From NCBI GenBank assembly GCA_903927505.1, contig CAIYNF010000158.1, forward strand, positions 1-48,042: DNA of 48,042 bases, given 5' to 3'. This document shows positions 6,796-17,686 of this stretch, piece after piece. This stretch comes from an uncultured Bacteroidota bacterium. Lineage in GTDB: Bacteria; Bacteroidota; Bacteroidia; UKL13-3. Position numbers and translations under genes: made by a program. Every line of letters starts with the position of its first letter. Position 1 is the first letter of the stretch. The notes beneath the pieces are model-generated. The model had not been told where the DNA came from, searched no databases, and saw only the letters and a list, made by a program, of their open reading frames with translations.

Positions 6796-7194
6796 TTAGT
6801 TTTTAAAATGAGCTGCAATAGTATTTGCTATTGTTTGCATTTCTTCACTTGGTAAATCCAATTTTGGATTGGCAAAATTCATTTCCTCCATTTGAGAAAA
6901 CGGAATTAAATGAATGTGTGCATGCGGCACTTCTAAACCCATTACACAAACACCCACTCTCAGACAAGGAATAGCCTGTTTAAGGGCCATTGCTACCTGT
7001 TTAGAAAAGACATGTAAATTGGCAAATTCGGCATCTGCCAAATCAAAAATATAATCTTCTTCTATTTTGGGTATTACAAGAGTATGACCTTTGGTAAGCG
7101 GACGAATATCTAAAAAAGCTAAAAAATTTGCAGTTTCAGCCACCTTGTAACAAGGAATTTCTCCTGCTATAATTCTGCTAAAAATACTGGCCAT
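6796..7194 (-). CDS. HIT family nucleotide hydrolase
   Basis: SIFSRII.GEIP, GHTLVIPK, HAHIH histidine triad. Confidence 0.95.
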   Translation of the reverse strand: MASIFSRIIAGEIPCYKVAETANFLAFLDIRPLTKGHTLVIPKIEEDYIFDLADAEFANLHVFSKQVAMALKQAIPCLRVGVCVMGLEVPHAHIHLIPFSQMEEMNFANPKLDLPSEEMQTIANTIAAHFKN

Positions 7195-7195
7195 T

Positions 7196-7669
7196 TTAGA
7201 AAGTGATTTCTAATATTTCTAGTTTAATATTTCCAGCAGGAACAGTTACTTCGCAGGTATCACCAACTTTCTTGTTCATTAAGCCCAAACCTATTGGCGA
7301 TTTAAAGGAAATTCTTCCTGTTTTTAAATCTGCCTCTTTTTCATTCACCAAAGTATACCAAATTTCTTTTTTAGAGTTATGGTTTAAAACCCTTACTCTG
7401 GTAAGCATCATTACTTGGCTATTGTTTATTTTAGATTCGTCAATGATTCTAGAAACAGCAATCAAATTTTCCATTTTAGAAATCTTGGCTTCCAATAATC
7501 CTTGGTCTTCTTTTGCGGCATGGTACTCGGCATTTTCACTCAAATCACCTTTGTCTCTTGCATCAGCAATCTGCTTAGAAATAAAAGGACGTTGAACGTA
7601 TTTCAAATCATATAAATCTGCCTTTAATTTCTCTAAACCTTCTTTGGTTACAAAATTTGTTTCTGCCAT
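7196..7669 (-). CDS. greA: Transcription elongation factor GreA
   Basis: ARDKGDLSENAEYHAAKE and IS..SPIG motifs. Confidence 0.97.
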   Translation of the reverse strand: MAETNFVTKEGLEKLKADLYDLKYVQRPFISKQIADARDKGDLSENAEYHAAKEDQGLLEAKISKMENLIAVSRIIDESKINNSQVMMLTRVRVLNHNSKKEIWYTLVNEKEADLKTGRISFKSPIGLGLMNKKVGDTCEVTVPAGNIKLEILEITF

Positions 7670-7695: not shown

Positions 7696-7738
7696 AAAAA
7701 TAAAAGAAACGTTCCGCACAAAGGCGGAACGTTTCTTT
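7696..7738 (-). terminator. Intrinsic terminator-like hairpin between the PorV-family gene and greA
   Basis: 15-bp perfect stem AAAGAAACGTTCCGC (7703-7717) / GCGGAACGTTTCTTT (7724-7738), followed on the minus strand by a U-rich tract. Confidence 0.85.
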
Positions 7739-7746
7739 CTTACATA

Positions 7747-7764: not shown

Positions 7765-8904
7765 TTATCCCTTTTTACCTCCAATAGTTAAACGTATGCC
7801 AACTGTGTGCATTCCGTTAAAAATTCGGGTTGGTGCGTAAGAGTAATCTATTGCCATTGCTGTTCCAGTTTTTGTTACAGGCACTTGAAAAGTAGCACCT
7901 GCCCATAAGCCATAAACAGGATTCAAATATTGAGGATCCGACATATTTTTTGAAAATGCTTGCTGATCGCCCATAACATTATAAGCTACGCGTAACATGG
8001 CAGTTTCTTTGTATGAATATTCAGCACCAAAACCATATACATTTGATTGAAATGCATTGTAGTTAAAGTTAAAAGAACCCGTTAAACGATGGTAATAGGT
8101 ATCTGGTGATTTATCTAAACGCATATCATAACCCAAACCAATATTTACCAAAGTAGGTAAATTGAATTTATCTGCAGAGAAATAAGCCTTTCTATCAGCA
8201 CCAGTTGCAGAATTAATTGCACGGAAAGACAAACCTGGACCACGGAAAGTTAAATCCGGACCAATATTTCTCATAGAGATACCTAACCTGAAATCTTCTT
8301 TCTTAATTTTATTTTTCTCTTTCTTTTCTTTGCTAGAGCTCAAAGAAGTTTGGTATTGAACACCAAAATCAAAAGCCATGCCTTGCGCTTTCACGTCCTG
8401 CAAGCCCTCAGAAATCAAGCGAATCAAGAAACCACCCGTAATACTGTTTGAAAACTTCTTGGCATATGAGGCACCAATATTTAACACTTGAGGTGTAAAG
8501 GTAGGCAAGGTTCCATCAGGATTATCGTAGGTAGTAATAGGAATATTACCAAAATCCCATGACGCAAATCCCAAACCAATTACACCACCTTCGCCTTTTT
8601 CTCCAACGGTTTGAGCCAAAGCAAAGTTGTTAATATTAACACCTGCGCCCTGCAAGAAACTCATACGAGAGAAACAAACTTCTGTTTTATTGGTATATGC
8701 CAAACCAGCAATATTCATATTAAAAGATTCGATACCTCTAACAGAAGCAGTATTTGAGCCTCCGTAACCAGAGCTTCTTCCGAAAGGATTAATGTTCAAT
8801 TGTGTTGCACCCGCACCGCCAGAACGGTCTGGGTTTCCTGCGAAGGCATTTGCCGAAACAAACAACATACCAAGCAATCCTAATTTTATAATGTCTTTCT
8901 TCAT
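7765..8904 (-). CDS. PorV/PorQ-family outer-membrane beta-barrel
   Basis: Signal peptide; L.INPFGRSSGYGG...N.AGLA start typical of PorV/FadL-like barrels; D.G.QY, NIGP.L and DYSY strands. Confidence 0.82.
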   Translation of the reverse strand: MKKDIIKLGLLGMLFVSANAFAGNPDRSGGAGATQLNINPFGRSSGYGGSNTASVRGIESFNMNIAGLAYTNKTEVCFSRMSFLQGAGVNINNFALAQTVGEKGEGGVIGLGFASWDFGNIPITTYDNPDGTLPTFTPQVLNIGASYAKKFSNSITGGFLIRLISEGLQDVKAQGMAFDFGVQYQTSLSSSKEKKEKNKIKKEDFRLGISMRNIGPDLTFRGPGLSFRAINSATGADRKAYFSADKFNLPTLVNIGLGYDMRLDKSPDTYYHRLTGSFNFNYNAFQSNVYGFGAEYSYKETAMLRVAYNVMGDQQAFSKNMSDPQYLNPVYGLWAGATFQVPVTKTGTAMAIDYSYAPTRIFNGMHTVGIRLTIGGKKG

Positions 8905-8938
8905 TTTACAATTATTAGTAATTTATACTCTCGTCTAA

Positions 8939-11900
8939 TTAGAATGTATCAAAATCCGCAGGACGCATGATTCCGAAAAATTTAATTACACGTTCACCTA
9001 TTCCATCTGCATATACATGCACCAAATAAACGCCACTTGAAATTGGCACACCTGCGTCGTTTTTCAAATTCCAATCCAAATAGGTTTTGCTGTCATCGTC
9101 TTTTTTAATTCTACGAATCAAGAAACCACCTTGGGTATAAATTGAAACCACACATTTTTTAGGTAGGTTAATGATTTTAACTCTGGTGTCTAATTGGTTT
9201 CCTGGATCTTCATAACCTGCATAGGCATAATATGGATTTGGAGTAACAGAAACCATATCCAAAGCAGTTTTACCAGATTCTTTCCCTCCAGCAATTGGCG
9301 CTAAACCAGCAGTAGAGAAAGTATACAATGGCACACCTTTATTTAACAAAGTATCTGTAGCCGTTTGGTTAATTGAAGAATAAGGACGCTTAACATTTAA
9401 GTTAATCTTTACATCACAAGGTAGACTGCCATTTGAAGTTAAATCGCCTAAGAATGTTTTTGGAGAAACCAATGTCATACTCACCCACATTGCTTGAGAA
9501 TAGATATAACGCATATTCAAAGTAACACCTGTACCATTTTCAATTTTGGTATACAACTCATTGTAATTGGCACACTCATCGTAATGCGGACCATTATACA
9601 ACACCGGACCGGTAGGTAAAGTGCGGAATGGTTTTGCCCCCATTACATAAATATGGTGTTTTCCACCCATCATATAATCTAAACCAGCAGGTGTACCTGT
9701 AACCAAATGGCTTGTAGGATTCCAAATCATATCTGTTCCATTTTCTAATGGCAATGATGAATCTTCTGCAAACATGATATTTAAACGCTCGCCCGTTTCT
9801 TTATTAATTGCATAACCAGGGAACCAACTCATACCTGTTCCAGACCCATCTGGTTTACCATCTTTACCAACAGATTGAGATTTTCTTCTGGTCATTTTTG
9901 CTGCACCACCAATTGTTAAGGCAGGGTTTTCTCCAGCTTCAACTACCACACATCTCGACCATTTAGATTTATCAGCTGTAATAACAACTAAAGTACTTCT
10001 TAAATCAGACAATGGGTTATCTGCTGAGTATCCACCACTACTTGCAGCCCAAGCTGGACCATAAGTTGGTTGTGGCGTTATGGCTCTTGCTGCCAAACTA
10101 TATGGAGCCCAAGTACCATCAATTAATTTACTGTATTGTCTTCTAGGGTCGATAGGGCGTTTAGCACCTGATGGACCATCTGCAAAGTCATGCTCGTAAG
10201 GATTTCCAAAGCCAGGAGTACCTGTATTACCAGATCTAATCCAGTTAAATGGAACCAAAGAAGCCATTTCATCTTGTATACCAACCATCCAACGGTCTAC
10301 AGGATTTGCATATTCAATAGTTGCAGATAAAAATCCATTTGCATCATCCGTTGGGTCATCTGGGTGACCAGGACCAACAACTTGACTTACCGTTAAGCTT
10401 AGACCTAAATCTACAAATATTTGCTCATTGTGTCGGTTAATTTTAGCTTCACCTGTATCTACTTTACCTGTGGTCAAATTTGTCAAAGTCCAAATAGTTG
10501 AATCACCTGTTAAGGTATCAGATTTAAATTTAGAACGCGATTGATCAATCATTCTCAATTCAAAATCTGCACTTGGTACTTTAAATGGATCTATTACTTT
10601 AACTATTACAGGACCATTACCTCTAGCAAATGTTGGGTTTGGCACATAGTAAGGAGCTAATAATGCTTTTTCAATACTTTCTTTTGTTAACGACAATGCA
10701 TTTCCGCCATTACCCAATCCTTCAATACGGGTAATTTCTGGGCCATCGCCCCATGAAGTATTTAATACAATACCTTGTTGGTGTGGAGTAGGTTTATGCG
10801 GTGTTCCTGTCCAAACAGTAATACCAGAACCATCCACCATTTTTCTACCTGCCAAATATTGCAAGGCATCGCTGGTACAATTAGTAGCGCTCGCATAAGC
10901 CACCAAAAGGAAATAATAATTTTGGAAGTTAACCAAGCTTTGGTCAGACAATTTAGAGAAAGCATCTTTAGAAATTTTGAAACTATGTCTAATTCCTTTG
11001 TCTTCTCCAGTAACCATAATTTTCTTCACCGATCCTAAATCGGCATCGTTAACAATGTTTACTATTAAACCACTACCATCCAAAATATCACATTGCGCTA
11101 CAGGAATAGCTTCATCTAAATTATATAAATCACTCGGAATTGAATTTTTCTTCAATTGGAAGATTTGGTAACCTTGGAATTTATAAACAGTTTTACTGGT
11201 ACATAAACCTGCCGATGAATCTGAATAATTTTCAGTTGTTTTATAGTTAGTAATGTTTAAGATAATTTCTTTGTCTAGTTCTACCACATCAATTGTAGGT
11301 ACACGAGGACCATCAACAATATTGAAATTGTTTTTGTAAAGTACATATGCTTTATCTGAAGCTTCTTTTAACAAGTTAAATGAACCAGTTGCTCCACCTG
11401 TTGTTGCTCTTGCCCATACAACGGCAACAGTAACTTGGTTTTTAGAACCCGGCAACAAACTAAAGGTACCAGCAGTTTGTAAAAATCTGCGGTCACCCGG
11501 ATTATTTCCAGCAATTCTTTCAGTCCAATCTGCACGGCCAATTGGATCTGTTTTACCAGGGAACATGAAACTAGCAGTATCTGTTCCACCACGGCCATTG
11601 CCACCATAAGTGATATTTAAACCATCTTTCCATCTACCGTTTAGGTAATTCCAATAATGCTCAGGGCGGGTAGGATTACCAGTAATTGAAAAGTCGTTGT
11701 TATAATAAACAAACTTTGTTAAACCAATTTCAGAAGTATCTCCATTTACAATTCTGCGTGGACCTTCAAAGAAGTTTACACCAACGCTAGGTGGGTTCAA
11801 ACCGTAACCTAAAATACCTTCATCGTTATCATCGCCATTATAGCAGATACCTAAGTTTCTTTTTACATCACACTCCACATAGTCATCTGAGTAGTTACCC

Positions 11901-12811
11901 AAATCTGCATCCACCCACTGACCAAAAATACAGCTATCAATAACCTCAGTACTGCGGTTATAAATGGTTGTACGGTAGAAAGTCATGTTATTGATTTCAT
12001 CATTGGTAGAATAAGCAAAACTTTGTGTGTGCATTTCCAAACCAATTGGCAAACCTTCGGTTTCTGAGTGAATATTTCCTTTATCGTTGTAAATAGTATA
12101 CAACATCATGTCAGGAATATTCTTCAAATTATCTTGTTCAAAAGTTGGGAAGTCGCCACCATCTGCAGGATTGTAAGTACCACTTACGTCTGCATCATAA
12201 TAAGGAGCTAGGTATGTAGCCTCACCTGTTACAATTGGACCATCAGGTGATTGCACGTTACCGTTTCCTGGCCAGCTTAAAATAACCTCACTAGGCTCTT
12301 TGCTTTCAATTGGTTGGTTTTGAAATTCTTCAATTTCAGCCAAAGTAATTTTCCAGATTTTGTCGTAGAATTTGCAACGAGCAGCAGCAATAGATGCAGA
12401 ACCGTCGGTTTGTAAAGCACCTGGGTAATAATCACTACCACTTTGACGGTAGGTTTGCGCTGCAATGCGCAAGTTCCCTTGTGTTACACCACCAATCCAT
12501 AATGCACCAGAGAACAAAGAGTTCTTTGAGGTATTACCTGGTTCAACCTTAGGAATTTCATATTTGGCATTTTGCAAATTCCACCACATATCACCACCAT
12601 TTAAGATAGTAGTTCTAACGTTGTTAAGATCTAAATCTTTTTGCTGTGTTGCTGCTGCACAACCGGCACCCATTTTGTGCAAATTTGGCTGAGCACTTTT
12701 TCTTAGCATTCCAATATTCTCTTTGGCAAAACCTGCGTGGCTTGCAAAAAGCAATCCAAGCGCCACTAGAGACGTTTTAATAAAACTGGTATTCATCTTA
12801 TTCATGGTCAT
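8939..12811 (-). CDS. Large T9SS-secreted protein of unknown function (type A-like CTD)
   Basis: Signal peptide ending AGFA; C-terminal VTPNPYY...IINLP..C..SIYT..G.LIR...WNLKN..G.PISSGVYLVHV. The true start may be one of the downstream Met codons. Confidence 0.85.
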   Translation of the reverse strand: MTMNKMNTSFIKTSLVALGLLFASHAGFAKENIGMLRKSAQPNLHKMGAGCAAATQQKDLDLNNVRTTILNGGDMWWNLQNAKYEIPKVEPGNTSKNSLFSGALWIGGVTQGNLRIAAQTYRQSGSDYYPGALQTDGSASIAAARCKFYDKIWKITLAEIEEFQNQPIESKEPSEVILSWPGNGNVQSPDGPIVTGEATYLAPYYDADVSGTYNPADGGDFPTFEQDNLKNIPDMMLYTIYNDKGNIHSETEGLPIGLEMHTQSFAYSTNDEINNMTFYRTTIYNRSTEVIDSCIFGQWVDADLGNYSDDYVECDVKRNLGICYNGDDNDEGILGYGLNPPSVGVNFFEGPRRIVNGDTSEIGLTKFVYYNNDFSITGNPTRPEHYWNYLNGRWKDGLNITYGGNGRGGTDTASFMFPGKTDPIGRADWTERIAGNNPGDRRFLQTAGTFSLLPGSKNQVTVAVVWARATTGGATGSFNLLKEASDKAYVLYKNNFNIVDGPRVPTIDVVELDKEIILNITNYKTTENYSDSSAGLCTSKTVYKFQGYQIFQLKKNSIPSDLYNLDEAIPVAQCDILDGSGLIVNIVNDADLGSVKKIMVTGEDKGIRHSFKISKDAFSKLSDQSLVNFQNYYFLLVAYASATNCTSDALQYLAGRKMVDGSGITVWTGTPHKPTPHQQGIVLNTSWGDGPEITRIEGLGNGGNALSLTKESIEKALLAPYYVPNPTFARGNGPVIVKVIDPFKVPSADFELRMIDQSRSKFKSDTLTGDSTIWTLTNLTTGKVDTGEAKINRHNEQIFVDLGLSLTVSQVVGPGHPDDPTDDANGFLSATIEYANPVDRWMVGIQDEMASLVPFNWIRSGNTGTPGFGNPYEHDFADGPSGAKRPIDPRRQYSKLIDGTWAPYSLAARAITPQPTYGPAWAASSGGYSADNPLSDLRSTLVVITADKSKWSRCVVVEAGENPALTIGGAAKMTRRKSQSVGKDGKPDGSGTGMSWFPGYAINKETGERLNIMFAEDSSLPLENGTDMIWNPTSHLVTGTPAGLDYMMGGKHHIYVMGAKPFRTLPTGPVLYNGPHYDECANYNELYTKIENGTGVTLNMRYIYSQAMWVSMTLVSPKTFLGDLTSNGSLPCDVKINLNVKRPYSSINQTATDTLLNKGVPLYTFSTAGLAPIAGGKESGKTALDMVSVTPNPYYAYAGYEDPGNQLDTRVKIINLPKKCVVSIYTQGGFLIRRIKKDDDSKTYLDWNLKNDAGVPISSGVYLVHVYADGIGERVIKFFGIMRPADFDTF

Positions 12812-12840
12812 TTTCTTTTTCTTTTTTTAAACAATATGGT

Positions 12841-15800
12841 TTAGAAATATAAAGCCAAACCTAAACGCGTTAACCTAGGCAACATAAATCTGTCTGGGTT
12901 AATCATTCTGATATTGTATAAGTCAACATAAGACTGCTGATTGGTTGCAACCTCTTTTTGTTCTTGTGAAGCTGGTGAAGCCAAAAATCCATCATTATAG
13001 GCAGAACCGGTATAACGGTATACTGAAGTTACATTTGCTGTGTTCAATAAGTTTTGAACCATTACAAAGGCACGCAATCTATATACTGTTGTAGAACCAT
13101 CTATTTTCTTTTGTTTGAAAATAAAGTTTTTATCAATGTTCAAATCAACGTTTATCTGTGCTGGTAAATTTGCCCCGTTTGGAGTTCCTTTTACCGGGCT
13201 TCTCACAACCACGCCACTTTGCACACCACCTGGTGTTGGGTTTAAATCTTGGGTATATGGACGGCCAGAGTATGATGTAAAAATAAAGTTGAAACCAGCA
13301 TTTTCAAAAATTTTCTTGCCATTTACAATTGGACCATTGTATTCTTTTCCTTCTTTATAATGGTAGTCGAAAATAGCTTTGAAAGTATGACGGGTATCAA
13401 AATCCAATGGAATTAATGTACGCAATGATGGCATACCTACTTGGATCAATGCACTTGCCGAGTTGGCGTTTGAACCAGTTCCATCTGCAAACATCAATTG
13501 GTAATTGGCAGTAATAGTTACATTGCCTAAATCTCTCACATTGTATTCTAATCCTAAACTTTTTGTAGTTGAAAAGTCTAAGTTACCATAAGTGGTATAA
13601 TCATTTGGCCAAGATTGTACATAACGGTACAATTGCTCTAGGTTCTTAATTTCACTGTATGAAGCAATAATAGACAATGCGGCATCTTGACCAATTTGTT
13701 GACGGAAACCAATTTCATAATCGGTTTTTTGACGCATTTTCAAATTTGGATTGGCAATGGCGCCACCACTCAAACGATTTTGCAAATAGAAATAATCATC
13801 AATCTGACCAACATTGGCTCCTGGTCTTTGGGTTAAGATATCATAAGTACCAAAGAACTGAGAAGTTGTTGAAATTGGGAATGAGAACCAGATACGAGGT
13901 AAAATTTTCAAATCTGGTTTATAATCTGTAAACGAAGAGGCTGTAGGTAATTGAGGATTTTTAGGATCAACCAAATAAGGCATATTTCTGTTTGTTCCTG
14001 CATCACGTGCAATTTGTTGCGGATCAGAAATTGGATTACCATTTCTATCATACCATTTGTTACCATCACGGTAACCCATGAATTTTACATTCGACATATC
14101 ACCCAATTGTTGGTCTGGGTCTTTGTTGATATAAGGAACAAAATTATCGCCAATAGTGGTAGGAATGTTAGCAGCATCAGCAAATCCTTTTGCTTTTGCT
14201 TCGCCAACTGAATACAAAGGAACCATTGAATATGGATCTTTTAATACAGATTGGTTCGCATCAAAACGCTCCATACGCACACCCACACGAACAATTAAAT
14301 CTTTAAATACAAACTTGTCTTGAATCCAAGCTGCAAAATAAGTTGGTTGATAAGCCGGCAATAAACGCTTAGATGGGTCGTTTAAGAAATCTTCAATGCT
14401 CGGACGTTTTCTAGTAATATTACCTAAATGGTCATATCCGCTATAACTTACAATTGAATTACCATTGTTTAACAACTCGCTTGCATTAAACATATCCAAT
14501 GAGTAATCAGATGGTTTGTATGAGTTCACATCTAAGTATGAATATTTGTCAATTGGCTTGCCATAAGCATCAACCGCACCTTGAGCGATTAACTTATCGC
14601 GGAAGTTTTTATCGAAATTGGTTTGCTCATCGCTGATGATTTTTCTTCTAAAATCAACTGTATCGCTGAAAACACCATTTTGGTCAAATCTTAAGGTATA
14701 ACCGTTTGAATCTAATCCAGAGAACTGACGGTTAGCATATAAACGCATCACCCCCCATAAACTATTTGCACCCAATCCATAACTTCTGTTGAAACGTTGC
14801 TCTAAGTTCAAGCCCATTTGGAACTCATGTTTGGCTTTCGGATTGCTTTTTGGTGCAACGGTAAATTCACTTTGAATATATAAATTAAAAGTTTCACCCA
14901 TCGATTTGCTGTAACCAGCTTGTTGCGAACCAACATTAGCAAACATTGAAGAGTAAATACCATTTGGGGCATCTCCATTAATTAAACCACCTACTTGGCG
15001 AACAGTACCTAAGTTTCTGATATTGTTTGCTCCAAAATAGTCATAAACAGAACGGGTATAATTTCCACGAACTTCATTGTAGTTTTTGTCTTGGTCGAAA
15101 GTATAAAGGGTATCTCTAAAACCAGTATGACGGTAATAGTCTGTTAAATATAAGGTATTACCGTTTACACTAAAGGTATCGGGCCTGTCATTTATACCTT
15201 TAATTACGCGTGCGTAATTTGGTGCAGAATAGGTAGTAAACTTACCTACATAACCATAGTCGAAATAGTTTTTGCCGAAATCGGCATCCATAGATTCGCC
15301 ATAACCTCTTTCGTATGATAAACGCACAGAATAATAAGCATTGCTAATAGATGAAGGCTTTTTAGCTGCGCCGTCCTCGTCTTTTTTATCATTTTTAAAT
15401 GTTTGCGTAAACTGCAAAAATGTTCTAACGGTATAACCTCTAGAAAAACCATTCTTATCTGAATTTAACAAAGAACTATAAGAGTTCCATCCCAATCCTT
15501 GGTTATAGTTACCATAATAACCCAAACGTACATTGATATTGCTTGTTGGTTGAAAGTTAAAGTTACCATTGATATTAGCACTGGTAGAATAAACATTTTG
15601 GCGAACCGAAACTTTTTCTAAATCGTTTTTGGTGATGTATTCAGCAGCAGGAAACAAAGTACCCAATGCCCCTGGCACCAGAGGCGTTCCTTGAATTTGT
15701 TTCATTTTATCAGCTTTCACTTTGTATAAATCTACAGCCGATAAACTCTTAGAATAGGTAATATCTCCAGAAATTAAAAAACCTACAATAACACGTTCTT

Positions 15801-16623
15801 CATTTCCTCTACCTTTATTAATGGTTTTAATAGGGCCAGAAACAAAACCTTGAAAGTTATTGTATTGGCTATTGTCTAAATATCCAGTGAAAGGAGAAGC
15901 TGAAGTAATTTCAAAACCTCTGTTGAAATTTTTTGTAGGAGCCTTAGTTGTAATACTAATTGCACCACCCACAAAGTCGCCATATTGCGCAGGCGTACCA
16001 CCTGTAATAACCTGAATTTGATCAATGGCATTGGCAGGAATACTTGCAGCACCAGCATTTACGCGCACGCCATCAATATAATAAGCAGTACCATCTGCAC
16101 GTGCTCCACGGAAATTTGGTGTACTACCACCGCGGGTGTCTACCCCTAAAGTTGTACCAGCAATAGAGTTCACAGAACGCGTACCCAATGCCAAAATTTC
16201 TTTGGTAGTTTTCACATCGCCTTTTACCCCTCCTGGATCAACCAATTGCTTTTTGAAAGTAACTTTTACTTCCTTGTAAATGTTACCATCTGAAGGTTCC
16301 ATGCTAAAATTAACAAAACGGTCACCCTCTGGCTCAACTGTAATGTTTTCAATTACAGAATTGTTGTAACCTATATAGGTAGCATATAAGTCATACTCGC
16401 CTGGCTGTAAGGTTTTAACAACAAACCCTCCATCATCATCCGTTTTGGCAGTACCTTTTACCACACCATTTAACTTAACGGTGATACTCACAAAATCCAT
16501 AGGTTTTTTGGTTTTGCCATCTTTTACCGTACCACGGATGGTACCCATACCCGATTGGGCATAAAGGGCAAATTGGAAGCCAAAAAGAACCACGAGCAAA
16601 ATGTATATTTTCTTCATTGACAT
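12841..16623 (-). CDS. Large TonB-dependent receptor with N-terminal carboxypeptidase-regulatory-like domain
   Basis: GTI.G.V.D..T N-domain; plug motifs FRGAR...T.YYIDGV and VITGG.PAQYGD..GG.ISITTK; NPNLK, DYEIGF; C-terminal Phe. Confidence 0.92.
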   Translation of the reverse strand: MSMKKIYILLVVLFGFQFALYAQSGMGTIRGTVKDGKTKKPMDFVSITVKLNGVVKGTAKTDDDGGFVVKTLQPGEYDLYATYIGYNNSVIENITVEPEGDRFVNFSMEPSDGNIYKEVKVTFKKQLVDPGGVKGDVKTTKEILALGTRSVNSIAGTTLGVDTRGGSTPNFRGARADGTAYYIDGVRVNAGAASIPANAIDQIQVITGGTPAQYGDFVGGAISITTKAPTKNFNRGFEITSASPFTGYLDNSQYNNFQGFVSGPIKTINKGRGNEERVIVGFLISGDITYSKSLSAVDLYKVKADKMKQIQGTPLVPGALGTLFPAAEYITKNDLEKVSVRQNVYSTSANINGNFNFQPTSNINVRLGYYGNYNQGLGWNSYSSLLNSDKNGFSRGYTVRTFLQFTQTFKNDKKDEDGAAKKPSSISNAYYSVRLSYERGYGESMDADFGKNYFDYGYVGKFTTYSAPNYARVIKGINDRPDTFSVNGNTLYLTDYYRHTGFRDTLYTFDQDKNYNEVRGNYTRSVYDYFGANNIRNLGTVRQVGGLINGDAPNGIYSSMFANVGSQQAGYSKSMGETFNLYIQSEFTVAPKSNPKAKHEFQMGLNLEQRFNRSYGLGANSLWGVMRLYANRQFSGLDSNGYTLRFDQNGVFSDTVDFRRKIISDEQTNFDKNFRDKLIAQGAVDAYGKPIDKYSYLDVNSYKPSDYSLDMFNASELLNNGNSIVSYSGYDHLGNITRKRPSIEDFLNDPSKRLLPAYQPTYFAAWIQDKFVFKDLIVRVGVRMERFDANQSVLKDPYSMVPLYSVGEAKAKGFADAANIPTTIGDNFVPYINKDPDQQLGDMSNVKFMGYRDGNKWYDRNGNPISDPQQIARDAGTNRNMPYLVDPKNPQLPTASSFTDYKPDLKILPRIWFSFPISTTSQFFGTYDILTQRPGANVGQIDDYFYLQNRLSGGAIANPNLKMRQKTDYEIGFRQQIGQDAALSIIASYSEIKNLEQLYRYVQSWPNDYTTYGNLDFSTTKSLGLEYNVRDLGNVTITANYQLMFADGTGSNANSASALIQVGMPSLRTLIPLDFDTRHTFKAIFDYHYKEGKEYNGPIVNGKKIFENAGFNFIFTSYSGRPYTQDLNPTPGGVQSGVVVRSPVKGTPNGANLPAQINVDLNIDKNFIFKQKKIDGSTTVYRLRAFVMVQNLLNTANVTSVYRYTGSAYNDGFLASPASQEQKEVATNQQSYVDLYNIRMINPDRFMLPRLTRLGLALYF

Positions 16624-16726
16624 AGAATTTACTATTTAGAAACAATTATTTAAGAGCGGTAAAATAAAGTAGTTATATTGAAAATAACAATATCTATTTA
16701 CGGACGAATGCCTTTTGGGGATATTT

Positions 16727-17686
16727 TTAGCTAAAAGTGAGCAACTTAAGCAATAAAACGTTGGAAATTTTGTGATAACTTTCTTTGGTCCACCCCCCAA
16801 TATGAGGTGTAAGTATCACTTTTTCGTTTTGTGACAAATAAGTAAACTCCTCAAATTCGGTCGAATTTAGATTTTTCAAATCCTCATTTTCGAGCACATC
16901 CAATGCACATGAATTAATTTTTCCAATTTTTAAAGCTTCAATTAAAGCATTTGTATGAACTACTTTTCCTCTGCTCAAATTTAAAAGGGTAAAATCTTTT
17001 TTAAACTGCGCAATTTTGGTTCGATCCAAATAGTACTTTGTTTCACTTGTTAATGGCACGTGAAAGGAAAGAATATCTGCCGCTTCATAAATTTCTTCCC
17101 AATTACTTTCTTTCACTATTGCCGAACCAAAACCATGCAAATATTTATCGTAAGCGAGTATTTGAACGCCCATGCCACTTAACTTTTGTGCAAATGCTTT
17201 TCCTGTATTTCCATAACCAATTATGGCAATGGTTTTTCCTGCCAATTCCACACCTCTATTTGCTTCTCTTAGCCATATCTTTTGCCTCACTTCAAAAAAG
17301 GCTTTAGCCAACTTATTATTGAGCATTAGCAACAAACCTAAAGCATGCTCTCCAACAGCATCTGAATTGGCTTCTCCAGCATTTACGCAAGTGATGTTTT
17401 GGGCATTTGCCAATTCCAAATCTATGTTGTCTAAACCTGCTCCTGCACGCGCAATAATTTTCAAATCTTTTGCAGCATTTAGTAGCTCAAAATCTACAGT
17501 GGTTTTGCTTCGAATAATTAATACTTGTTTGCCTGGCAAATTTGCAATTATTTCTCCCCTGTCTGCATCCGGTAAATAAAGAACATTACATCCAACCTCA
17601 CACAAGCCTTCTGGCAAACATGCATGCACGTCATCTACAATTAAGACATTCATACCCGCCATCCAACTATTTATCTTACCTAACAT
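16727..17686 (-). CDS. D-isomer-specific 2-hydroxyacid dehydrogenase (SerA-like)
   Basis: ARAGAGLDNID, GYGNTG Rossmann motif, HVPLT, N.SRG, LDV.E.E, TPHIGG. The start may be a few codons downstream. Confidence 0.92.
   Translation of the reverse strand: MLGKINSWMAGMNVLIVDDVHACLPEGLCEVGCNVLYLPDADRGEIIANLPGKQVLIIRSKTTVDFELLNAAKDLKIIARAGAGLDNIDLELANAQNITCVNAGEANSDAVGEHALGLLLMLNNKLAKAFFEVRQKIWLREANRGVELAGKTIAIIGYGNTGKAFAQKLSGMGVQILAYDKYLHGFGSAIVKESNWEEIYEAADILSFHVPLTSETKYYLDRTKIAQFKKDFTLLNLSRGKVVHTNALIEALKIGKINSCALDVLENEDLKNLNSTEFEEFTYLSQNEKVILTPHIGGWTKESYHKISNVLLLKLLTFS

Follow-up and report, generated by a model that had tools for sequence, protein, structure and literature searches.

The stretch of DNA analysed here, called the window throughout, covers positions 1 to 48,042 of contig CAIYNF010000158.1 (assembly GCA_903927505.1) and comes from an uncultured bacterium of the phylum Bacteroidota. 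A list of the open reading frames (ORFs) of this 48,042-nt window, compiled with a threshold of at least 100 amino acids (aa), contains three co-oriented ORFs on the minus strand encoding 1260, 1290 and 379 aa, hereafter the triad. They encode a TonB-dependent transporter, a large protein presumed to be a cargo of the T9SS (type IX secretion system), and an outer-membrane barrel of the PorV/PorQ family, and their arrangement is conserved in related genomes far beyond chance.

12841..16623, minus strand: gene 1 (P0001, 1260 aa), TonB-dependent transporter (ORF, Pfam, AlphaFold2 (AF2), Foldseek)
8939..12811, minus strand: gene 2 (P0002, 1290 aa), secreted all-beta protein, presumed T9SS cargo (ORF, AF2)
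7765..8904, minus strand: gene 3 (P0003, 379 aa), PorV/PorQ-family outer-membrane barrel (NF033709, tree)

By the ORF coordinates, genes 1 and 2 are separated by 29 nt (12812-12840) and genes 2 and 3 by 34 nt (8905-8938). The locus had been singled out in an earlier note on this DNA; the positions and lengths it gave for the three ORFs match the ORF list exactly, and the short gaps and the closing terminator it described are confirmed. Its family labels, a TonB receptor, a cargo with a sorting C-terminal domain (CTD) and a PorV-like barrel, also hold, as seen from the Pfam matches, the NF033709 match, and the signal peptide and CTD-like tail of gene 2. The word "giant", used there for gene 1, is an overstatement for a protein of 1260 aa, as SusC-like transporters are about 1000-1150 aa long. 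There is no further ORF of at least 100 aa inside the triad stretch and the flanks are housekeeping genes, so a SusD, a regulator and a hydrolase are absent from the unit; the note had said the same, and the families of the neighbouring genes agree.

Conservation and distribution of the triad

A genome scan using one genome per species returned 605 candidate stretches, 558 of them with a relative of the cargo, and the best 80 related loci, all from metagenome-assembled genomes, were kept. Both sides of the cargo could be judged in 68 of these 80 loci. In 66 of the 68, transporter, cargo and barrel follow one another in this order on a single strand, with gaps mostly of 10-80 nt; the two exceptions are L070, where an ORF is truncated, and L094, whose cargo homologue is a lone gene. 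The same order was found in all 12 distant genomes fetched, eight of which belong to other classes of the phylum. Within their own phylum the three genes are thus conserved together, as the earlier note had supposed; it had named the opposite outcome as one that would speak against its proposal.

The eight loci from other classes encode a shorter transporter (1049-1144 aa) and a shorter cargo (1063-1159 aa). These cargos retain only the N-terminal 45-690 region (about profile positions 24-690 among the distant orthologues; a beta-supersandwich plus residues 500-690) and the CTD, and among the distant genomes a long transporter is paired with a long cargo and a short one with a short cargo. The identities of the three triad proteins to the window copies covary (r 0.97-0.98 over 56 loci), which is not an independent test because the loci are kin. 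Averaged over 44 loci, identity amounts to 57% for each triad protein, compared with 70% for GreA, 62.5% for the HIT protein and 53% for the dehydrogenase encoded in the flanks. The surface proteins therefore evolve about as slowly as cytoplasmic housekeeping genes, which is unusual for surface proteins involved in nutrient capture.

The records of six loci of Bacteroidota type (L030, L039, L062, L067, L074 and L096) are titled as taxa unrelated to the phylum, namely Vulcanococcus, Comamonas, Bifidobacteriaceae, Agrobacterium, Rhizobium and Burkholderiales, probably because the bins were mislabelled.

Of 401 genomes sampled from the phylum, 192 match the cargo profile with E <= 1e-10, and PorV was found in 308. 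Within the window's class, the cargo was present in all sampled members of families f7 (8/8) and f10 (3/3), in 2/21 of f2, and in none of f3 (0/28) or f12 (0/12), while PorV was found throughout the latter two (28/28 and 12/12). All 16 same-class genomes with a cargo relative encode PorV (16/16), and family f25 has neither PorV nor cargo (0/87 for each). This distribution indicates that the triad occurs only alongside a T9SS, yet is no general part of it.

One triad copy per genome is found in the window's class. Two complete genomes from other classes, G036 and G128, contain 16 and 14 PorV-family matches, respectively. In G036, nine of the 14 further PorV-family loci repeat the order transporter, CTD protein, barrel, which together with the triad orthologue gives 10/16; in G128 this is the case for six of the ten further loci, or 7/14 with the orthologue. 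The G036 cassettes consist of a transporter with CarboxypepD_reg, Plug and PF00593 domains, a CTD protein of 615-1285 aa without a Pfam family, and a PorV-family barrel. The cassette barrels of G036 and G128 pair one to one in the barrel tree described below, so that the paralogues are themselves old. The triad of the window appears as a single, slowly evolving and vertically inherited member of a cassette family that has been multiplied in other classes.

SusD matches number two in the genome of the window, six in G036 and zero in each of G128, G083 and G107 (other SusD-like Pfam families were not searched), and no clear inverse relation between SusD count and cassette number was seen across these five genomes.

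Identity of the three proteins

The product of gene 3 matches the PorV/PorQ family model NF033709 with 113.1 bits (cut-off 90) over profile positions 3-324 of 326. It fails the equivalog models of PorV (49.7 bits, cut-off 250) and PorQ (48 bits, cut-off 220), and the scan gave no PorV2 match. All three of these proteins are encoded elsewhere in the same genome: PorV (488 bits) beside PorU (1279 bits) on contig C120, PorQ (258.5 bits) split across two contig ends, and PorV2 (424 bits). Furthermore, the genome encodes SprA (2487 bits) and one more unnamed PorV/PorQ-family gene (183 bits, 333 aa). Judged by these matches, its T9SS looks complete (SprA, PorU, PorV, PorQ).

A quick search without bootstraps yielded a tree of 62 members of the family, drawn from six genomes and from the related loci, in which three long-branch rows are left unplaced. 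The 25 triad barrels form a single clade with a support of 98 in the approximate likelihood-ratio test (SH-aLRT), separate from the clades of PorV (99), PorQ (100) and PorV2 (100). The split of the triad clade into the window's class and the others follows kinship labels, which fits vertical descent. By sequence, gene 3 is therefore a PorV/PorQ-family barrel of an orthologous clade of its own and is neither PorV, PorQ nor PorV2. This agrees with the earlier note, which had taken the barrel for a paralogue of PorV and had regarded the alternative, that it is the only canonical PorV of the genome, as fatal to its proposal; the canonical PorV lies in a separate porU-porV locus.

Some observations were made around the other barrel genes of this genome. 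The PorQ pieces are located at L015:1-2284 and L017:3-407 (contigs C102 and C167), and a gene for a REP-associated tyrosine transposase about 700 nt from one of them may explain the assembly break. The PorV2 gene (L016:9177-11080, contig C24) adjoins a 279-aa ORF without a family and an O-antigen-ligase-like gene, and PorU2 was not seen among the ORFs scanned around it. At L014:8442-10699 (contig C78), the gene of the unnamed 333-aa barrel overlaps by 13 nt with the ORF that follows it; this ORF of 422 aa is without an NCBIfam family, and its one match, to NHL repeats, is weak. This may be another pair of barrel and partner, in reversed order and without a transporter.

Gene 1 carries a signal peptide, followed by the features listed here.

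16300..16542, minus strand: N-terminal extension of gene 1, residues 28-108, carboxypeptidase-regulatory-like fold (PF13620 over residues 28-108, PF13715 over residues 29-113)
16255..16275, minus strand: candidate TonB box KEVKVTF of gene 1, residues 117-123 (motif resemblance)
15964..16215, minus strand: plug of gene 1, residues 137-220 (PF07715, 41.1 bits, cut-off 23.9)

The Pfam scores are 54.2 bits for CarboxypepD_reg and 41.1 bits for Plug, and the N-terminal extension is placed as in SusC-type transporters. Between the extension and the plug lies KEVKVTF, which we take to resemble known TonB boxes; the family consensus keeps just V and Y. The AF2 model of residues 110-1260, computed from an alignment of 46 orthologues, has a mean predicted local distance difference test (pLDDT) of 88.4 and a predicted TM-score (pTM) of 0.83, and shows a plug ahead of a large beta-barrel with long extracellular insertions. 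The top Foldseek matches of this model are all TonB-dependent transporters (E 1e-25 to 1e-20; target-normalised TM-scores 0.65-0.76), the best being YddB (E 1.9e-25). They include 8bmx, a B12 transporter with its surface lipoprotein, and 9gbc, XusA with XusB. At the level of the fold, the modelled barrel thus appears to be of the 22-strand transporter type, the strand number being that of the type and not a count from coordinates. A distant orthologue in locus L101 reaches the Pfam barrel model PF00593 with 75.1 bits. Given the Pfam plug, the AF2 model, the Foldseek matches and this orthologue, we conclude that gene 1, as modelled, is a true plugged TonB-dependent transporter. The NCBIfam scan of gene 1 gave no family at E <= 0.01, including SusC/RagA; judged by its sequence it is outside the curated SusC/RagA model, and the adjacent gene is without a SusD family.

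Gene 2 has no family in the Pfam scan, and the following features were assigned by other means.

12725..12811, minus strand: signal peptide of gene 2, about residues 1-29, with the putative cleavage site ...HAGFA/KEN (read from the translation)
11315..12661, minus strand: N-terminal beta-supersandwich of gene 2, about residues 51-499 (VIA-align)
8942..9319, minus strand: CTD of gene 2, residues 1165-1290, type-A-like (NCBIfam, complex model)
8942..8971, minus strand: extra tail of the CTD of gene 2, last 10 codons (orthologue comparison)

The signal peptide is without a lipobox cysteine. Among 8000 candidates scored, 2560 are relatives of gene 2 at E <= 0.001, and the best 120 share 47-100% identity over the full length. 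Those relatives that have a name carry the label "hypothetical protein" or "T9SS type A sorting domain-containing protein", the latter being the NCBI label of the two homologues P0104 and P0113. Searching the sequence profile of gene 2 against solved structures gave 0 matches at E <= 1.

The AF2 model of residues 30-1175 (pLDDT 82.2) is nearly all beta. A VIA-align search of 48161 chains, in which just residues 22-470 of the model were resolved, placed the N-domain of 9ju0 at the top (Z 17.5, root-mean-square deviation 3.4, 253 residues), followed by N-domains of glycoside hydrolase (GH) families GH15, GH94, GH65 and GH116 and by galactose mutarotases, with about 20 further matches at Z 13-17. 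In the model, residues 51-499 or so (20-469 in model numbering) are therefore a galactose-mutarotase-like supersandwich, a statement about the shared fold that leaves sugar-binding residues aside. Foldseek on the whole model found weak local matches only (E 2e-5, TM 0.16), so that a fold is assigned to the supersandwich but not to about residues 500-1165. The ESM Atlas returned unnamed clusters for the whole protein, the nearest named one being a Fidelibacterota cluster with Por_Secre_tail (score 0.92), and no usable match for residues 690-1165. The invariant residues S1018, D1027 and H1052 were considered as a Ser-Asp-His triad; this reading was dropped because they lie in a beta-rich region, their spacing is not known from any hydrolase fold, and they are missing in the short orthologues from other classes.

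When the CTD was searched in isolation (126 residues) against NCBIfam, the top match was the C-terminus of PorZ (24.2 bits, E 9.9e-6), and the C-terminus of PorU was matched at E 0.0026. Five families were matched at E <= 10; a type B sorting-domain model was not among them, nor was PF18962 among the matches of the CTD. These results suggest a divergent CTD that is type-A-like rather than type B, and that scores, weakly, higher with the retained CTDs of PorZ and PorU than with the generic type A model. Every gene 2 orthologue examined, L098-L109 included, continues for 8-10 residues past the last CTD strand and has F, Y or L as its final residue. The tail reads ...KWFGxxRPxDxDxF in the window's class and ...KFGVVKKRIQLxxF/L in other classes, whereas the paralogous cassettes have cargos without an extra tail, which stop at the usual ...GKFAIIK.

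Gene 3 was modelled in complex with residues 1165-1290 of gene 2, giving a score of 0.83 compared with 0.00 for the best of three controls. Among solved complexes, 116 of 157 reach this mark, and among mismatched pairs 2 of 215, counts that hold only roughly here since alignments prepared for this analysis were used. Three runs share at least 97% of contacts, and the pLDDT of the partner is at least 74. The predicted interface involves the N-terminal segment and extracellular loops of gene 3 and most strands of the CTD, up to residue 1285. The model supports docking of the CTD of gene 2 on the gene 3 barrel, and is in line with the binding between cargo and barrel that the earlier note had suspected.

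Boundaries, flanking genes and expression

The remaining features of the locus are as follows.

7702..7739, minus strand: intrinsic-terminator-like hairpin closing the triad (stem, loop, T-run)
16624..16726, minus strand: upstream intergenic region of 103 nt, presumed promoter region (sequence)
6796-7669 and 16727-17686 of the window: housekeeping flanks of the triad

The hairpin lies 25 nt past the gene 3 stop and consists of 16 pairs (7 G-C), a 6-nt loop and a T-run. It has the longest stem of the terminator scan, which overall was not enriched (11 sites compared with 8.1 +/- 2.6 expected). The sigma-70 promoter scan was uninformative (34 sites, 41.4 expected). Rfam gave zero family matches anywhere in the window, and there is therefore no riboswitch ahead of the transporter gene.

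Downstream of the triad are greA, a HIT gene and ruvC, and upstream are a 2-hydroxyacid dehydrogenase gene and ksgA. These flanks are conserved: greA is found downstream in 58/68 loci, HIT in 56/68, and the dehydrogenase upstream in 51/68, the latter count including three loci from other classes. No functional link between the housekeeping flanks and the triad is evident.

Contigs on the triad were found in four freshwater RNA libraries from four studies. In library X12, one contig (7832-9091) spans the junction of genes 3 and 2, and another (11109-15343) that of genes 2 and 1.

Possible role of the triad and comparison with known systems

We propose, with a probability of about 0.5, that the gene 2 protein, once exported by the T9SS, is held on the cell surface by the gene 3 barrel, where it is partner to the gene 1 transporter. 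The three genes would then specify one outer-membrane module. The gene 2 protein is predicted to reach the periplasm via its signal peptide and would probably cross the outer membrane through the T9SS (SprA). Its CTD might remain uncleaved and bound to gene 3, in analogy to PorZ, which retains its CTD to bind PorQ, and to PorU, whose CTD stays on PorV (PMC10202324). According to a suggestion in the same review, cognate PorV-like barrels may shield the CTD from cleavage. If the CTD stays on gene 3, this barrel is the surface tether of an all-beta protein of 130 kDa, which may sit beside or over the transporter. The cargo could capture or process a ligand, probably a glycan in view of the galactose-mutarotase-like supersandwich, which gene 1 would import with energy from TonB. 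The module would be a functional counterpart of SusC-SusD, or of a transporter paired with a surface lipoprotein, except that its partner protein would arrive via the T9SS and have a barrel, not a lipid, as its anchor. In Cytophaga hutchinsonii, a TonB-dependent receptor co-purified with PorV (PMC8564354).

Several observations weigh against this proposal. Concerning the transporter, gene 1 itself scores below PF00593 and below any NCBIfam transporter model, and KEVKVTF is possibly a TonB box, by mere motif resemblance. Concerning the cargo, the CTD reaches only 14.5 bits with TIGR04183 (cut-off 23) and its matches to PorZ and PorU are weak; retention of the CTD is reasoned from analogy, and cleavage by PorU cannot be read from sequence. 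The supersandwich is no proof of sugar binding, since the periplasmic domain of YidC shares this fold. The complex model covered the pair of CTD and barrel alone, leaving the position of the cargo at the transporter as a presumption, and its high score may reflect a general likeness rather than binding by this pair, because complexes of PorV-family barrels with CTDs have already been solved. RNA-library contigs may include DNA and are not proof of a single transcript. Some loci also depart from the one-to-one arrangement. L094:7989-14772 encodes a full-length cargo homologue (1287 aa, 42% identical) without transporter or barrel, and in L098:4219-17393 the barrel gene is immediately followed by that of another full-length paralogue of the cargo (1326 aa), in the order transporter, cargo, barrel, cargo. 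Among the further PorV-family loci, L148:9678-13686 and L158:7635-11587 have a transporter followed by a barrel with no cargo between, and L153:8098-11718 and L161:9626-11572 have two tandem barrels without a transporter. Finally, conservation at the level of housekeeping genes also fits a structural role in the envelope.

As side observations, the lone cargo of L094 adjoins a TetR regulator and another Por_Secre_tail protein. The tandem barrels of L153 follow a BNR-repeat, sortilin-like CTD protein.

Gene 3 could instead be a transient private shuttle, comparable to PorP/SprF, that picks up the cargo from SprA, after which the CTD is cut and the cargo released or linked to lipopolysaccharide. 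The cargo would then cooperate only loosely with the transporter; it could be an enzyme or a binding protein that is secreted and whose product is taken up by gene 1. We regard this as unlikely. In its favour, the complex model fits a transient contact equally well, PorU of this genome (1279 bits) could cleave the CTD, and with type B CTDs it is established that cognate shuttle barrels are encoded beside the substrate (PMC12618676). Against it, the same article has PorV recognising every type A CTD, which would make a private shuttle for one that is type-A-like a novelty in its own right. The CTD is, weakly, nearer to the retained CTDs than to the generic type A model, and its conserved extra tail, present in all orthologues, is absent from the paralogous cassette cargos. 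Furthermore, a strict one-to-one order with the transporter over class-level distances exceeds what a diffusible partner would need.

A somewhat less probable explanation is that the module builds some structure of the envelope or surface (for example an adhesin, an element of a surface layer or a gliding-related part), in which the plugged barrel is a platform and nothing is imported. The slow evolution of the triad argues for it, the mean identity of 57% being within the 53-70% of the cytoplasmic neighbours over the 44 loci compared. So do the single copy per genome in the window's class, the conserved synteny with greA, HIT and the dehydrogenase, and the make-up of the unit, which is without a regulator, a hydrolase or an inner-membrane transporter. 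A precedent exists in BamG-BamH, a FadL-like barrel with a large extracellular protein in a machine that does not serve transport (PMC12578637). Against a structural role, gene 1 retains the plug, the N-terminal extension and the full transporter fold. The triad is also not a general envelope requirement, because the cargo is missing from all sampled genomes of f3 and f12, every one of which encodes PorV. Moreover, other classes have multiplied the cassette with very different cargos, and multiplication with varied cargos is typical of uptake systems.

Finally, gene 1 might work outwards and export or insert the gene 2 protein, which gene 3 then receives, in the manner of Oar, which in Myxococcus is reportedly needed for secretion of PopC. 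Gene 1 shares with Oar-type proteins the architecture of CarboxypepD_reg and plug, and the cassette transporters of G036 also match PF25183 OMP_b-brl_4 (45.9-49.6 bits). We consider this very improbable, as the cargo has a T9SS-type CTD, the genome encodes SprA, PorU, PorV and PorQ, cargo relatives in the window's class occur only in genomes with PorV (16/16 checked), and a folded 130-kDa protein would hardly pass through a plugged 22-strand barrel.

Extending the proposal of a tethered transporter partner to the phylum, we tentatively suggest, with less confidence than for the triad itself, that such cassettes are a second phylum-wide route to surface-assisted TonB-dependent uptake, parallel to SusC-SusD, in which the T9SS delivers the partner and its CTD stays plugged into a private barrel next to the transporter. 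The triad of the window would then be an ancestral single-copy member with a conserved ligand, whereas other classes would have multiplied the cassette to some ten per genome, with varied cargos, in the manner of polysaccharide utilisation loci. Uptake independent of SusD, as the earlier note had put it, is what the gene order suggests, and the genome has its two SusD matches elsewhere. If the proposal is true, the role of the T9SS goes beyond the secretion of enzymes and adhesins and extends to equipping nutrient importers with permanent accessory subunits, and the rule that PorV recognises all type A CTDs (PMC12618676) is incomplete. It would further explain the 14-16 PorV-family genes in many genomes of other classes. 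A protein family with thousands of members annotated as hypothetical would gain a name and a testable model, and the module, with three genes, is a simple one.

In the full-text literature, subscription journals and preprint supplements excepted, we found no description of a unit of transporter, CTD protein and PorV-like barrel; a text match to "PorV2" in PMC10994853 is a superscript reference number only. The triad nevertheless resembles several known systems in part. Its cargo and barrel are similar to PorQ-PorZ and PorV-PorU of Porphyromonas gingivalis, where a PorV/PorQ-family barrel holds a large surface protein by its uncleaved CTD (PMC10202324). Gene 3 is of the same barrel family, the CTD of gene 2 is closest to those of PorZ and PorU, and docking is predicted. 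In contrast, gene 3 is in a separate clade, gene 2 is without the body of PorZ or PorU and has a supersandwich N-domain instead, the pair of cargo and barrel is always encoded with a TonB-dependent transporter, and retention of the CTD is here presumed.

The PorP/SprF shuttles, such as SprF with SprB in Flavobacterium johnsoniae, likewise have a dedicated barrel beside its own T9SS substrate, whose fate it decides (PMC12618676, PMC10202324). The triad differs in its type-A-like CTD, in a barrel of the PorV/PorQ family, and in the transporter gene within the unit. BamG-BamH of the Bacteroidota BAM complex is similar in that a FadL/PorV-like barrel binds a large extracellular protein via extracellular loops (PMC12578637), whereas BamH is a surface lipoprotein, that complex serves protein insertion, and the triad shows no link to BamA. 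TonB-receptor-like proteins linked to the T9SS are also known, namely PorF (PG0534) and CHU_1606, the context of the receptor that co-purified with PorV (PMC8564354). PorF is described in the quoted passages of that article as having no plug, whereas gene 1 is plugged, a comparison made by description and not by sequence; nor do those passages describe these proteins as encoded with a private barrel and cargo.

In SusC-SusD, and in BtuB-BtuG and XusA-XusB with their surface lipoprotein lids, as in the triad, a TonB-dependent transporter of Bacteroidota carries an N-terminal extension and is encoded next to a partner exposed at the surface. Unlike the partners in these systems, gene 2 is without a lipobox or a SusD family, is about 130 kDa in size, and has a T9SS signal and a barrel of its own; gene 1 is without a SusC/RagA match, and contact between transporter and partner is here presumed. 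TonB-dependent transporters with partners at the surface are thus a known kind, as are CTD proteins held by PorV-family barrels. What is apparently new is the combination of a PorV-family barrel private to a type-A-like CTD, a transporter gene that always accompanies the pair, and multiplication of the whole as a cassette.

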